A stretch of DNA of 64,000 nucleotides from Nitrososphaerota archaeon. GTDB taxonomy: Archaea > Thermoproteota > Nitrososphaeria_A > Caldarchaeales > Caldarchaeaceae. The stretch's first letter is position 1, and each line of letters begins with the position of its first letter. The notes below the pieces were generated by a model. That model saw nothing but the letters and a program-made list of their open reading frames with translations. It made no database searches and had not been told where the DNA came from. Below are positions 34,667 through 41,440 of this stretch, piece after piece. The position numbers and the translations under genes were made by a program. The stretch is taken from assembly GCA_041641305.1 (NCBI GenBank), contig JBEPYN010000002.1:480001-544000 (forward strand), written 5' to 3'.

Positions 34667-34717
34667 ATCGGGGGTTTAGGGAGCATGGTGTGACGCCCAA
34701 CGGAAAGCTGCTGAAAC

Positions 34718-35010
34718 CTCATACTTTAGCGTCTTAAAGCCAGAACATTTCTCAGAATAGTCATATTCTTCGTCAGGTTTATAAGAGATGCATAGGGTAT
34801 TGTCCTCAACCCATAGGTCGATAGGTATGGTTCTTGGTCAGTGGCAACAGTCTCGGCCTATAGCGCGAATACACCATAGTAATTGGGAAGGTGGTGTAAA
34901 TGAGGTTCTACTGCGATGTCCATAGGAAGAGGGATGACACAGGCTACAGGGTAACATACACAACGGATGGCGAAGACTTTAGACATGTTGATTCACCGGT
35001 GGAGATACCG
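34718..35010 (+). repeat. Diverged, internally deleted copy of the 38.0-38.45 kb module (remnants of the small Zn-protein gene and the IS110/Nop-like gene)
   Basis: Minus strand encodes IDLWVEDNTLCISYKPDEEYD (cf. 37904-38164). Plus strand from ATG 34900 encodes MRFYCDVHRKRDDTGYRVTYTTDGEDFRHVDSPVEIP (34/37 aa identical to the 38332 protein), then unrelated sequence to a stop at 35058. Confidence 0.92.
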
Positions 35011-35064
35011 GCAGGCCTGGCTGCGGAAAAACACGCTTATATAGGGTTTGGGTGTTGAGTATGT

Positions 35065-36501
35065 TTGATGTCGGCTGCCACGGCGCTGAACAAGTACCGC
35101 AACTTCAGCGACTGGTTTGACAAGCTTCTGCTCGAGGCCCGTATCGTTGATGATAGGTTTCCGGTTAAGGGTTTCTCTGTCTATTTGGAGAACGGCACAT
35201 ACATACTGAGGCGTGTGCAGGAGTTGTTGGAGAAGGAGCTGCTGGAGACGGGTCATAAGGAGATGATTTTCCCGCTTGTTACGACGGAGGAGCTTCTCGG
35301 CAAAGAGGCGCAGCACATCAAAGGCTTCAGCACGGAGGTGTTTGTGATAGAGTCGGCTGGCGGTAAACCGCTTGATGTTAAGCTGATTGTGCGTCCGACG
35401 AGCGAGACCATCATGTATCCCATGTTCAAGCTGTGGATAAGAAGCCACGCAGACCTACCTCTACTTGTCCATCAGAGCAACATGGTTTACAGACATGAGA
35501 CCAAGGCGACGAGGCCTCTGCTAAGAGTGCGGGAGATTCCTTGGAATGAGGCGCACACGGTTCATGCAACTGCGGCCGAGGCCGACCAACAGGTGCGTAA
35601 AGCGGTGGAAATCTATCGCAAGGTGTTGGACCAGCTTGGGCTCGCTTATCTCGTGCTCAAGAGACCTGATTTCGACAAGTTCCCCGGCGCAAGATACTCA
35701 ATAGCCTTTGACGCATGGAACCCCGACGGCAGAGTGAACCAAGTCGCGACAGTCCACAATCTTGGGAAGAATTTTTCGAAGGTGTTTGAGATAGAGTTTG
35801 AGACACGTGAAGGCAAGCGTGAGAACCCCCATCAGCTGTGCTACGGTTTTGGCTATAGCAGGGTTTTGGCTGCGTTGATAAGTCAGCACAGCGACGACAG
35901 GGGTCTCGTGCTTCCGCCTGTTGTCGCTCCTCTCCACGTGGTAATCGTTCCAATTGTATTCAAGGGTCAGGAAGAGGCCATTAAACAATTCTGCTACAGT
36001 GTCGCGGAGAGGCTGCAAAAGTTTTCTGTGAAGGTTGATGATAGGGAGGATGTGACGCCGGGTGAAAAGTTCTACTACTGGGAGAAAATGGGTGTCCCGG
36101 TGAGGCTGGAGATAGGGCCGCGTGAGGTGGCGGAGAACCGGGCTACGTTGTTTAGACGGGATACGTTGGAGAAACAGGCTGTCGCCGTCGAGGAGATTGA
36201 GAAGGCTGTGGAAAATGTGTTGAAAAGCATGGAGCAGAGTCTCGCGGAGAGGAGCTGGCGTATCATGCGTCAGATGATTGTCGACGCTTCAAATGTTGAT
36301 GAGGTGAAAAAAATTATTTCGGAGAGAAGGATCGCGAGGTTTGGCTGGTGCGGCTCAGTGGAGTGTGTTGAGCAACTTAAAGAGGCTGCGGGCGGGGAGC
36401 TTAGAGGAAGCAGGTTTGACGAGCTTGAGGTGCCCAACGGCCCCTGCATAATCTGCGGAAAAAATGCGGCAGAAGTGGTTTACTTCGCTAGGGCGTATTG
36501 A
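35065..36501 (+). CDS. proS: Proline--tRNA ligase (archaeal/eukaryotic type)
   Basis: RPTSET, YRHETKATRPLLRVREI, HNLGKNFS, GVPVRLEIGPR and C-terminal FARAY. Confidence 0.97.
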   Translation: MMSAATALNKYRNFSDWFDKLLLEARIVDDRFPVKGFSVYLENGTYILRRVQELLEKELLETGHKEMIFPLVTTEELLGKEAQHIKGFSTEVFVIESAGGKPLDVKLIVRPTSETIMYPMFKLWIRSHADLPLLVHQSNMVYRHETKATRPLLRVREIPWNEAHTVHATAAEADQQVRKAVEIYRKVLDQLGLAYLVLKRPDFDKFPGARYSIAFDAWNPDGRVNQVATVHNLGKNFSKVFEIEFETREGKRENPHQLCYGFGYSRVLAALISQHSDDRGLVLPPVVAPLHVVIVPIVFKGQEEAIKQFCYSVAERLQKFSVKVDDREDVTPGEKFYYWEKMGVPVRLEIGPREVAENRATLFRRDTLEKQAVAVEEIEKAVENVLKSMEQSLAERSWRIMRQMIVDASNVDEVKKIISERRIARFGWCGSVECVEQLKEAAGGELRGSRFDELEVPNGPCIICGKNAAEVVYFARAY

Positions 36502-37512: not shown

Positions 37513-37797
37513 TTAGAGGAATTGCTCGGGCTTTCTCTCATCTCTGGCCCTAACCTTGAGGACGCCGTAGTGGATGGCGCAGCTGATGCAGAGGTTTTTT
37601 ACTACGATGTTTTCGGCGAGATAGGCACCCGCCTGCTTCAGCTCACGGGCCAAGTCACCGCGGACAAGAGAAACACGCCGCGTTACACGCTGGACCTTGC
37701 TTCTCGGCACATAGGCTCCGCAGTTGTCGCACTGAACAGTCGGCTCCTTCCCCTTAGCGCCTTTCGACCTGCCACGGCTCTTACGCTTGAACGGCAT
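37513..37797 (-). CDS. rps26e: 30S ribosomal protein S26e
   Basis: MPFKRKSRGR, VQCDNCGAYVPRSK and CISCAIHYGVLKVR. Confidence 0.96.
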   Translation of the reverse strand: MPFKRKSRGRSKGAKGKEPTVQCDNCGAYVPRSKVQRVTRRVSLVRGDLARELKQAGAYLAENIVVKNLCISCAIHYGVLKVRARDERKPEQFL

Positions 37798-37903
37798 TCC
37801 ACTCAATCACTACTATGTCTGTTATATAAAGATCGTCGAAGGTTAAACCAATTTTCTCCAAAACCTTCGCCAATAAATCCCTTGGAAAACAATTCGAGGA
37901 CAG

Positions 37904-38164
37904 CTATTTAGGTAGGTTGTTTTTCTTTTTTCTTGGTTTTGTTCTTATTTTTATTGCGTGGAATGGGCATTTTTGAAATTGTTCAAGAATGTGTCCTTTC
38001 TGGCATTTTGAGCAGAAGCCTATACCCTCCTCATAATTCGGGGTTTTAAAGGTAGGAATATTCTCATAGTGGTCATATTCCTCGTCAGGTTTATAAGACA
38101 TGCATAGGATATTGTCCTCAACCCATAGGTCTATAAATAATCGATTTTCCCTCATCCACGCCAT
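37904..38164 (-). CDS. Small Zn-finger-like protein
   Basis: CSKC...CPFH...IRTKPR motif with basic tail; a homologous remnant at 34718-34823 supports coding status. Confidence 0.6.
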   Translation of the reverse strand: MAWMRENRLFIDLWVEDNILCMSYKPDEEYDHYENIPTFKTPNYEEGIGFCSKCQKGHILEQFQKCPFHAIKIRTKPRKKKNNLPK

Positions 38165-38331
38165 TATTCAAGTCGTTATTAGACAGGTATGCATGGTGGC
38201 TTGGTATCCTAAGCCTAAGCCCAGCCGTAGTATAATACCTATTTTTTTGGTAATGGCTTTAAACCAGTTTTTAGGTTATGGGGGACATGGCCACTACCTA
38301 TGGCACGAATACACCAAAGAAAGTGGTGTAG

Positions 38332-39180
38332 ATGAGGTTCTACGCTGATGTTCATCGGAAGAGGGATGACACAGGCTATCGGATAACCTATACAACTGAT
38401 GGTGAAGACTTTAGACATGTTGATTCTCCGTCGGAGATACCGGTAGAAGCTGGAGACAAAGTATACGTAGACACAATACCGATAATACATACAGATGGTT
38501 TCATAGAGCTTCTTAGAAGAGGTGCTGAGGTTTACTATCTGAGGAGACTAACCATGATTGAGGCTGTGAGGCAGAAGATGGGGATAAAATCCAAGTCCGC
38601 GAGGACAGATATCAAGGCTTTGATGGCTGTTGATGATAAGTGGTTCCGTAGAGTGGATGAGAATTTCTTGGTGATGCGACAGATGATTTCGGCGTTTAGA
38701 AGTTTGGAGAGAACTATGCAGAGGCTGGAGAACCAGCTCAAGGCGGCTTCATCTGCTACCGAGGAGAGCTTGAGGAGAATGGTAAAACAAGTAGAGATAG
38801 AGAAAGAGGTCTTAGCCAAACGGATTTCAGAGGAGGCGGCGAAGAGGTTCCCAGTCTTCGTAAAGGTTGTGGAAGAGCTAGGGATAATGGGAGAGAACCA
38901 TGTATTGGCTTGTGAAGCTTTGGCGGAGCTGCTAACCTACGTCGACTTCAGCAAATCCTTTAGACAAGTGCGAGGATACCTACGGCTCTACAGGAAACGT
39001 TCAAAAAACCAGACGTATAACCACGAGACACGCCATGCGCTAACAAGGCTCACAATGGCAACAACAAGAAATACACCAAACGCCCATAAACAAGAAGACA
39101 TACTGATGAAGATATGGCTGACAATCAGACAGGAAACCCAAGAGAGGCTGGCAGGCATACCGGCCCAACAACAGGGATAA
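38332..39180 (+). CDS. IS110-related RuvC(DEDD)-coiled coil-Nop/Tnp20-fold protein (TasR-like architecture)
   Basis: YADVHRK (cf. GIDVHK), VYVD, KSARTDIKAL (cf. KTDxxDA), a coiled coil, then LAELLTYVDF...VRGYLRL...YNHETR (cf. IS110 Tnp20/Nop domain). Confidence 0.7.
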   Translation: MRFYADVHRKRDDTGYRITYTTDGEDFRHVDSPSEIPVEAGDKVYVDTIPIIHTDGFIELLRRGAEVYYLRRLTMIEAVRQKMGIKSKSARTDIKALMAVDDKWFRRVDENFLVMRQMISAFRSLERTMQRLENQLKAASSATEESLRRMVKQVEIEKEVLAKRISEEAAKRFPVFVKVVEELGIMGENHVLACEALAELLTYVDFSKSFRQVRGYLRLYRKRSKNQTYNHETRHALTRLTMATTRNTPNAHKQEDILMKIWLTIRQETQERLAGIPAQQQG

Positions 39181-39307
39181 AACCCAGAAGCCGGTATGTC
39201 CTGTTATATAGCGAGCTGACTCTTTCGCCAGCTATGTCTAGTTTATAAACGGCCGGCTTCTTTCATGGGTTTCCTAGGTGTTGTTGCTGGTTGGTTGCCT
39301 GCCAGCC
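39146..39307 (+). ncRNA. Candidate structured RNA (long rod-like hairpin) overlapping the 3' end of the IS110/Nop-like gene
   Basis: Nested helices 39146-57/39296-307 (12 bp), 39166-73/39279-86, 39180-86/39266-72, 39187-95/39252-60 and 39214-18/39229-33, with several G-U pairs on the + strand. Confidence 0.6.
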
Positions 39308-39317
39308 AACCACCCCC

Positions 39318-39332
39318 TTATTTTTTCCCTTA
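39318..39332 (+). terminator. Oligo-T tract after the hairpin
   Basis: TTATTTTTTCCCTTA just after the hairpin base; oligo-U termination is standard in archaea. Confidence 0.45.
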
Positions 39333-39520
39333 ATTTATGTCCATATAAACTAACAGGGAAAACCACAACTAGGTATCTATTTCTTTCATTTTCCTCTTAC
39401 GAATGCTCAAATAAGCAATTCATGGTTTAAAGCTATGTAATAAACCAACTAGACATATCATAGGTTGATAAGTTAATATACAGGGTTGGCTAAAGTGGGC
39501 GTCGGGCAGCCGAGTAACAA

Positions 39521-41440
39521 ATGGTGGCCGGTCTGAAAAAACTTTCATGCTACAACAAACCCCTGAACTTTCCCGAGAATAATTTTGACCACGAATGGTG
39601 GAAAAAAATTTTCAACGAGTACTACCTTGTTACAGATGGGGACGTTGTCTGCAACCAAGAATTGACCAAATACGAGGTCGACCTCATAGTCAAGCTTCTC
39701 GACCTCGATAAAACCGATGCGGTGCTAGACCTTTGCTGCGGCAACGGCAGACACGCAATAGAGCTCGCTAGAAGAGGTTACAGGGATATACATGGGCTCG
39801 ACTACTCCAGGTTTCTGTTAAACGTTGCCAGAAATTCAGCTAGACAAGAGGGGCTGAAAATAGACTTCAGATGGGGGGATGCAAGGAGCTTGCCCTTCGC
39901 GGATAATTCATTCGATGCAGTTATTTTAATGGGAAACAGCTTCGGATACTTCGCTGAAATAGATGATGACCTGAGAGTCCTAAGAGAAGTGAGACGTGTC
40001 CTAAGACCTTATGGCAGAATCCTCATCGACGTTGTAGATAGAGAACAGTTCTTAAAACATTTGGAGCCAATCAGCAGTGAAAAAAATGGAGATGTTCAAA
40101 TAATTAGACTGCGGAGGGTCATCGGTCGAAACAGATTGGTGACGCGTGAAATTGTTATCAGGGAAAACACGGAGGTATTAACCGACCATGTCTATGGCGT
40201 TAGACTATACAGCTTCTCAGAACTCAAATGCATGCTGGAGCAGGCAGAGTTCGCAAATGTGACTCTCAAAGCCAGTATCTCATACAATCCTGAAGGAAAG
40301 GACCCTGGAATGCTCAAAACTAGGATGGTCGTTACAGCATTATCTTCGAAGGAGAACATCGTTACAGCCCACAAGCCGCTCATAGCGGTGCTCATCGGTG
40401 ATCCAAGTAGACGCAATCCTGTTAAGCCTGGTGCAGTATTAGATGAAGATGATGTCTATGCGGTTAACGAGTTAAAATCAGCTCTCATAGGTATAAGAAA
40501 GTATCAATTCTGTTTCCTCGATAACCACGACTCATTTCTAGAATACTTGAAGGCAAACAAGAACTCAATTCATATCGTCCTCAACTTATGTGATGACGGA
40601 TTTCACAACGACCCGCATATGGAGGGGCATGTTCCAGCTTTGTTAGAGATGCTAGGGCTGCGGTATACTGGTGCTGGGCCAAGATGCCTATTCCTATGCT
40701 ATGACAAAGCAGCCGTCAATGCGATCGCAGAATCAATGAGCATCCCTGTACCAGAGTATGTGCTAATTAACAACCAGGATGAACTGAACATAATACCTAG
40801 ACGAATTTATCCCGCTATAGTGAAGCCTAACTTCGCAGATAACAGCTGGGGAATAACTGCGAAAAGTATTGTTCGGGACAGAACCGAGTTGGAATCTGCA
40901 ATTCATCAATTGAAGATTGAATGGGGCTACCATGGCCCAGTATTGGTGCAACACTATGTTGAAGGAAAAGATCTGACAACCGCTTTAATAGGAAATCCGC
41001 CAGATTTCATTGTGCTACCGATTCTGACAGAAGATTATTCTTGTTTACCTGACGGGCTTCCGAGAATTCTGACCTATGATGCAAAGTGGGTTCCAGACTC
41101 TCCATATGGTTGTGTACAGTCGGTACCGGCTACACTTAATTCCGATATAAGACACAGGCTAGTCAACTGGAGCAAAGAGCTGTTCATAAGGCTGGAGTGC
41201 AGAGATTATGCGAGATTTGATTGGAGATTGGGATATGATGGTACTCCATGGCTGTTAGAGGCTAACCCAAATCCTGGATGGGTCTGGGATGGTCATCTCA
41301 GAAAGGCATGCAATTATATGGGATGGAGTTACAAGAAGATGTTTCAAGCCATCATTGAGGCGACTGAGAAACGTTATAGAACGGCCAACTCCAAACAACA
41401 CATTAGTATTCATCCTCAAAAGATTGAAGCCATACACTGA
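39521..41440 (+). CDS. SAM methyltransferase fused to a D-Ala-D-Ala-ligase-like ATP-grasp domain
   Basis: N-terminal LDLCCGNGRH...NSFGYF; C-terminal YTGAG...YDKA, IVKPNFADNSWGI, RDYARFDWR and LEANPNP. Confidence 0.88.
   Translation: MVAGLKKLSCYNKPLNFPENNFDHEWWKKIFNEYYLVTDGDVVCNQELTKYEVDLIVKLLDLDKTDAVLDLCCGNGRHAIELARRGYRDIHGLDYSRFLLNVARNSARQEGLKIDFRWGDARSLPFADNSFDAVILMGNSFGYFAEIDDDLRVLREVRRVLRPYGRILIDVVDREQFLKHLEPISSEKNGDVQIIRLRRVIGRNRLVTREIVIRENTEVLTDHVYGVRLYSFSELKCMLEQAEFANVTLKASISYNPEGKDPGMLKTRMVVTALSSKENIVTAHKPLIAVLIGDPSRRNPVKPGAVLDEDDVYAVNELKSALIGIRKYQFCFLDNHDSFLEYLKANKNSIHIVLNLCDDGFHNDPHMEGHVPALLEMLGLRYTGAGPRCLFLCYDKAAVNAIAESMSIPVPEYVLINNQDELNIIPRRIYPAIVKPNFADNSWGITAKSIVRDRTELESAIHQLKIEWGYHGPVLVQHYVEGKDLTTALIGNPPDFIVLPILTEDYSCLPDGLPRILTYDAKWVPDSPYGCVQSVPATLNSDIRHRLVNWSKELFIRLECRDYARFDWRLGYDGTPWLLEANPNPGWVWDGHLRKACNYMGWSYKKMFQAIIEATEKRYRTANSKQHISIHPQKIEAIH

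Follow-up and report, generated by a model that had tools for sequence, protein, structure and literature searches.

The target of TnpB/omegaRNA systems (IS200/IS605), like that of homing endonucleases, is the empty allele, which the insertion splits. The guide RNA of TnpB overlaps the 3' end of the nuclease gene, and read-through from the transposon end supplies the guide, which is simply the flank. Two further kinds of system lie closer to the locus described here, and we compared it with both: TIGR-TasR with its stem-loop tigRNAs, represented by TaTasR and PDB 9MTY (PMC12045711; 10.64898/2026.09.09.750476), and the IS110/IS1111 elements with a bridge RNA or seekRNA, represented by IS621 and ISCro4 (PMC11208158, PMC11187229). 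TasR cuts leave 8-nt 3' overhangs (PMC12045711), and inactive TasR variants are repressors (10.64898/2026.09.09.750476). TIGR boxes can diverge (PMC12045711), some TIGR stem-loop guides overlap the tas gene, and the origin and targets of the spacers are open questions in that field (PMC12045711; 10.64898/2026.09.09.750476). For IS110, half-match and direct-transfer routes exist (10.64898/2026.08.31.748434, 10.1101/2025.10.25.684509); they require S241 and D102 (PMC11208158).

The window, by which we mean the whole 64,000-nucleotide stretch of archaeal DNA that was analysed, contains a gene for an IS110/Nop-like protein with a rod-like hairpin at its 3' end. A sequence-only reading had proposed that this hairpin is the cognate guide or scaffold RNA of the protein, by analogy with IS1111-type elements. 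We report that the hairpin carries two guides which address opposite DNA strands of a 15-17-bp target, and that each copy of the element sits in the middle of the target of its own guides. The element appears to move in a way that has not been described.

Results

The protein and its relatives

38332..39180, + strand: 282-aa RuvC/coiled-coil/Nop-Tnp protein; D6, D47 and D93 invariant, third acidic residue replaced by Ala, serine loop missing

Residues D6, D47, K88 and D93 are invariant in the family, and the third acidic position is Ala, Ser or Thr in the window's clade (A90 here) and Asp in distant members. No conserved Ser was present in the Tnp loop of 38 diverse members, in which the loop is short or absent, and the window's protein lacks a D102 equivalent. 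The 282-aa protein matched no Pfam family over the cut-off; three distant members touched DEDD_Tnp_IS110, below the cut-off only. A structure model (pLDDT 90) matched ISCro4, IS621 and TasR in Foldseek (E 2e-7 to 7e-5), IS110 recombinases ranking first. An independent structure search placed TasR first (Z 14.9, rmsd 4.1, 243 aligned), followed by ISCro4 (12.6) and TasH (12.1), and a profile of the 38 diverse members matched TasR (2e-8), TasH (1e-4) and IS621 (3e-4), the alignment to IS621 being gapped over its serine loop. Among relatives with a solved structure, TIGR TasR and not IS621 is the closest. Loss of D102 and of the loop, with the triad kept, would be coherent with a hydrolytic enzyme; with Ala, Ser or Thr in place of the third acidic residue, cleavage may be weak or absent.

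Four full copies of the gene, at 64-66% identity, and one 5' fragment are present in this genome. Within the class, 29 of the 75 genomes have the gene, some of them with 30 or more matches, and the named homologues are from Ca. Caldarchaeum and relatives. A first genome scan with a single protein as query gave no match, viral contigs gave only two weak 39-residue matches, and no Transposase_20 gene is present in G000. A literature search that reached few subscription papers gave none in which the family is described.

A truncated copy without a hairpin lies elsewhere in the window (34717-35014). It consists of 37 codons from the 5' part of the gene, at 92% identity and with the same upstream scraps, and is fused just before a prolyl-tRNA synthetase-like ORF at 35065. 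In paralogues B and C (G000 C2:461365-461970, C1:516835-517656) an upstream ORF, possibly methyltransferase-like, ends exactly at the start codon of the gene; in the window, 38290-38334 is a relic of the 3' end of this ORF only.

A conserved rod hairpin overlaps the end of the gene

39146..39307, + strand: rod hairpin, predicted guide RNA from fold and alignment, covering the last 11 codons of ORF 38332-39180
39174..39179, + strand: conserved purine-rich internal loop, partner 39273-39278, adjoining the stop codon; kink-turn-like, non-canonical
39318..39332, + strand: pyrimidine/oligo-T tract, probable archaeal terminator; conservation among paralogues stops there

The pairing of 39146-39157 with 39296-39307, the stems nested inside it and the T-tract at 39318-39332 were all found where the sequence-only reading had placed them. 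The 5' arm is dual-coding, as had been claimed, and encodes R272-G282 of ORF 38332-39180 with its stop at 39178-39180. The reading had separated the stems by bulges; those near the apex are in fact one symmetric 17+17-nt loop containing two variable 9-nt guides.

The folding energy of the rod was -83.8 kcal/mol on the + strand (z -5.13; 0 of 200 shuffles equal or better) and -90.0 on the - strand (z -6.97), and the + strand had the lower energy in 40 of 77 homologues. Energy therefore does not choose the strand. We retained the earlier assignment to the + strand because of the G-U exchanges in the alignment, the orientation of the gene and the T-tract.

It had also been expected that homologues would have an equivalent hairpin with covariation. 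The rod was indeed present 3' of the four full paralogues in the genome and of most homologues fetched across Caldarchaeales, and also 3' of the distant members L182 and L183, which have four acidic residues. Alignment of 41 rod copies gave five helices with 92% of cells paired, against only 23-52% in slid controls, and no alignment result as good was reached in 500 shuffles. The stems carry compensatory changes, with both sides altered in 14 of the 33 pairs, a count inflated by the relatedness of the copies. The purine-rich loop has GA on its 5' strand and a variable partner strand. An Rfam search with the hairpin found nothing at E<=1, inspection by eye showed no evident internal promoter for the RNA, and the 3% of an RNA run that was scanned yielded 2 reads, both unrelated.

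A second fold competes with the rod.

39156..39164, + strand: coding-side strand of the alternative helix; in nascent RNA its partner is 39190-39198, which comprises guide stem and first box

RNAalifold favours the helix 39156-39164/39190-39198, in which compensatory changes also alter codons. An equivalent helix of at least 8 bp occurred in 79% of 42 distinct contexts versus 2.7% in shuffles, with sequences that differ between clades. The alternative helix was the best fold for window transcripts with 3' ends as far as about 39290; with the 3' arm complete, the rod wins (-83.1 versus -72.5). The alternative fold may hold the guide inactive until transcription or translation is done, or it could be a by-product of internal symmetry. 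We regard a regulatory folding switch as a tentative idea with slightly less than an even chance.

The guide loop

39187..39194, + strand: stem closing the guide loop, partner 39253-39260; helix 4, 96% paired
39196..39212, + strand: loop strand A, with 5-nt box 39196-39200, guide A 39201-39209 and 3-nt box 39210-39212
39213..39233, + strand: apical stem-loop separating the guides; sequence variable, most covariation
39234..39250, + strand: loop strand B, with 5-nt box 39234-39238, guide B 39239-39247 and 3-nt box 39248-39250

The symmetric loop lies between the fourth and fifth helix, and each of its strands has nine variable bases with a 5-nt box before and a 3-nt box after them. The box consensus is RYG(A/U)Y and RAY, and the last three guide positions are A/T-rich. 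The conserved RNA has this one guide loop only, with no second (donor-binding) loop, and there is no guide array; it is a single unit in which conservation ends at the T-tract. We parsed 111 distinct guide pairs and used 77 high-confidence pairs in the tests below.

The guides spell the insertion site

37513-37806, - strand: rps26e, a ribosomal protein gene whose promoter the element probably splits
37819..37827, + strand: left half of the split target, with the sequence of guide A and overlapping the probable rps26e TATA box
37824..37830, + strand: left copy of the direct repeat ATATAAA, 7 bp long with a 15-bp target but only 3 bp with a 17-bp target
39344..39352, + strand: right half of the split target, complementary to guide B at every position; the right repeat copy is 39343-39349

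The guide A 9-mer occurs 7 times in the genome and twice in the window, once in the left flank and once as the guide itself (local shuffles, 0.006). The guide B 9-mer occurs 4 times in the genome (local shuffles, 0.005). The element probably occupies the TATA box of rps26e and leaves a TATA box copy in place.

The same relationship was seen family-wide when the 77 guide pairs were compared with their flanks, using swapped flanks to obtain expected counts. An exact 8-mer complement of A or B lay within 700 nt in the downstream flank for 39 pairs versus 1.49 expected, and wrong-orientation downstream matches numbered 0 versus 1.5 expected. A or B was found in the upstream flank for 16 pairs (2.9 expected), and both half-sites were matched for 11 (0.04 expected). 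About half of the copies had no exact half-site within 700 nt. Either guide orientation was seen among copies, as would be expected because a symmetric dimer would allow both.

We also looked for uninterrupted targets. G000 contains those of other strains' elements, matching the guides of L104 at 16/16, L055 at 15/16 and L170 at 15/15 positions; the L170 target is the tRNA-Thr anticodon arm. At these three empty sites the two 9-nt guides share 2 or 3 nt of target. All 77 guide pairs were searched against G000 and only two had perfect targets, both of them true empty sites, so chance guide matches are rare. Metagenome and genome contigs did not yield the exact empty allele of the window copy. 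In G011 the rps26e promoter is uninterrupted; it matches 39343-39357 at 12/15 positions, which is the best match at that locus and lies at the orthologous position. This match confirms the right flank but does not choose between the 15- and 17-bp registers.

Guide A is sense and guide B antisense to one strand, so the target is double-stranded DNA. With two variable loop segments matching the copies' own flanks across the family, the proposal of a cognate guide RNA is strongly supported, and a guide function of the hairpin is very probable.

Some individual copies merit mention. The guides of L064 and L170 spell the tRNA-Thr(CGU) anticodon arm, the 3-nt overlap falling on the anticodon, and a rare G at guide position 9 has C opposite in the flank. 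In L012 the half-site complementary to guide B occurs twice downstream, at +439 and +465, 26 nt apart.

Ends, junctions and cargo of the element

37833..37911, no strand assigned: captured 79-bp copy at the inner left end, covering the 5' end of an IMP-dehydrogenase-like gene and sequence upstream of it (G000 C2:63156-63234; the name is a reading of the translation, with no database match behind it)
37904..38164, - strand: cargo, a short piece of a small Cys/His-knuckle gene family, shared with the left end of paralogue D's element; no Pfam match

The element in the window is a gene and RNA unit of 1.5 kb (37831-39342). It begins with 79 bp from the start of another gene in the same genome, followed by gene scraps, which would fit capture of a flank at an earlier site. 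Elements with both half-sites (n=13) measured 1.1-14.7 kb, the minimal copies (1.1-1.6 kb) consisting of gene, RNA and scraps only. Junction repeats were AT-rich and 2-8 bp long, with a mean of 5.3 versus 3.1 in the null; this statistic takes the best of three registers, and many of the loci are related. The span of 2-8 bp weakened the case for a fixed 2-nt core at insertion. Inner element ends were not clearly more alike than shuffles and had no inverted repeats. No circle joint was seen in three low-depth contig sets, in which rare forms are dropped.

The downstream DNA shared by sister copies runs to the guide-specified half-site of one sister, and the stop point differs between sisters. 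The homology broke no more than 4 nt from a guide-specified half-site in L012/L026, L018/L022, L023/L032, L116/L152 and L152/L157.

A motif of 16-17 nt from the 3' foot of the hairpin recurs inverted near paralogues B-D (G000 C1:441645, C1:517948, C2:451258, C2:457498, C2:451154). We rejected it as a terminal inverted repeat, the guide-defined ends lying elsewhere and having no inverted repeat. Three times it stands between a shared repeat-rich stretch and another hairpin, and it is possibly the 3' end of a second structured RNA. In paralogue D (G000 C1:439870-454540) the guide halves enclose 14.7 kb, with ORFs that by eye resemble a type III CRISPR-Cas operon. Window positions 39521-41440 encode a methyltransferase fused to an ATP-grasp (D-Ala-D-Ala ligase-like) domain. 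Most close relatives lack this gene in the interval from rps26e to the 2-hydroxyacid dehydrogenase gene; it is therefore a separate insertion, outside the guide-defined element.

Guides turn over between close copies

Guide identity was 0.40 in five pairs of copies with 94-97% CDS identity, whose scaffolds are about 91% identical, and 0.39 in pairs with 70-85% CDS identity. Gradual change from a parental guide would keep sister copies similar, so templated rewriting, or hypermutation and selection, would be needed. We infer that guides are exchanged wholesale when a new site is colonised. In the related copies L004/L009, L014/L032, L016/L110 and L134/L147 one guide is identical and the other different; separate replacement of the two guide halves is suggested.

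Discussion

We favour, with a probability of roughly 0.6, the reading that this is a TasR-like RNA-guided nuclease element that is copied into its own cut target by host repair. The guide RNA would be the 3' end of the gene's own mRNA, which would first adopt a shape hiding a box and guide A and would form the rod only on completion of the 3' arm or passage of the ribosome. A protein dimer would bind both boxes and open the target with both guides, and the RuvC triad D6/D47/D93 would nick both target strands. Host repair would then use another chromosome or site as the source of the unit and a variable amount of its flanking DNA, and copy them into the break via short microhomologies. The insertion would split the target, and the copy would therefore be protected. 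Junction repeats of up to 8 bp and loose ends are in line with the 8-nt 3' overhangs of TasR. Cut-and-copy through host repair, taken as a single step, has in our estimate about even odds. Repair-driven homing alone leaves insertion at the target centre and guide replacement unaccounted for, the window's clade has Ala, Ser or Thr where TasR and the distant members have Asp, and exact half-site matches within 700 nt are missing in about half of the copies.

Insertion at the target centre, with guides overlapping by 2-3 nt like an IS110 core, would suit a serine-free RNA-guided transposase, in which the RNP does the strand transfer itself and donor ends are chosen loosely at AT-rich spots. A RuvC-made 3'-OH might attack the target, or two one-loop dimers might undergo half-match recombination; half-match and direct-transfer routes are already known for IS110, and IS110 recombinases took the top Foldseek rank. 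We nevertheless consider such a transposase unlikely, as S241 and D102, which the IS110 routes need, are both missing, there is no donor loop or end motif, and repeat length varies from 2 to 8 bp. A canonical IS1111-type element with a seek/bridge RNA is very improbable indeed. The analogy drawn by the sequence-only reading held for the RNA position downstream of the gene and for two-strand targeting, with guides matching both target strands, and the fold is shared. Membership did not hold: there is no catalytic serine or serine loop and no D102, the DEDD set is incomplete, the RNA has no second, donor loop, and the ends are variable rather than conserved, with no sub-terminal inverted repeats.

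Mobility might instead come from elsewhere, the protein being a TnpB-like retention factor or a dead binder. Another agent would then move the DNA, and the RNP would cut or block empty alleles so that the insertion is kept. The RNA over the gene's 3' end and a guide equal to the empty site resemble TnpB elements, large copies carry island cargo, and the third acidic residue is lost. This seems to us distinctly improbable given the minimal copies of 1.1-1.6 kb with gene, RNA and scraps only, the lack of a common mobility gene or end, and guides that follow new sites in more than 100 different pairs. A further idea is that of a self-programming element, a serine-less TasR/IS110 relative that would write both halves of a new site into its own hairpin and insert without fixed ends, with cargo of up to 14 kb. 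We think this possible but would lean against it; if true, it would be a working model for the acquisition of TIGR spacers and bridge-RNA target loops. Guide acquisition becomes testable here, since upwards of 100 guide pairs have a natural target of known kind, the element's own site, and turn over fully between close copies. The 282-aa hot-spring archaeal protein and its 160-nt two-guide RNA are also a compact candidate tool.

Comparison with known systems

The unit shares with TnpB/omegaRNA a guide RNA over the 3' end of the nuclease gene and a target split by insertion, but the fold is unrelated, the guides are separate copies of both flanks inside a hairpin, and there is no TnpA. Archaeal box C/D sRNA with Nop5 likewise has a pseudo-symmetric RNA with two guides between tandem G-A type boxes (here UGA motifs in the main clade); the guides here differ in matching opposite DNA strands, and the RuvC acidic residues are kept. 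One RNA cannot pair with both guides because they match opposite DNA strands, and a box C/D-type RNA target was rejected, A being sense and B antisense to the same target strand.

With IS110/IS1111 the element shares the RuvC-coiled coil-Tnp fold, a multicopy mobile life and a guide loop matching both strands of the insertion site, the two matches overlapping briefly in the middle, and with IS1111 in particular the RNA downstream of the gene. It differs in having no S241 loop, D102 equivalent or donor-binding loop, in D6, D47, A90 and D93 in place of the DEDD tetrad (D-D-D-D in distant members), in variable 2-8-bp junction repeats without fixed ends or sub-terminal repeats, and in cargo of up to 14 kb and its own guides in nearly every copy.

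TIGR-TasR likewise combines RuvC, coiled coil and Nop fold without the recombinase serine. Its stem-loop with two spacers of about 9 nt (8-12 nt as a class) between boxes, one per DNA strand, has its counterpart here in two 9-nt guides between boxes addressing opposite strands of adjacent DNA, and the hairpin overlaps the protein's gene, as some stem-loop guides do with tas. Here, however, there is one unit per gene and no array, the boxes are RYG(A/U)Y and RAY instead of CCA/UG, and the guides overlap by about 2-3 nt. The unit is chromosomal, multicopy and almost absent from viral contigs, and its natural target is its own insertion site, whereas for most TIGR spacers the target is not known. 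The element thus targets like a stem-loop tigRNA and points to its own site like IS110, yet lacks defining features of each. Its anatomy lies between IS110 recombinases and TasR nucleases, and it may be a case of RNA-guided insertion that needs neither a serine nor a donor sequence.
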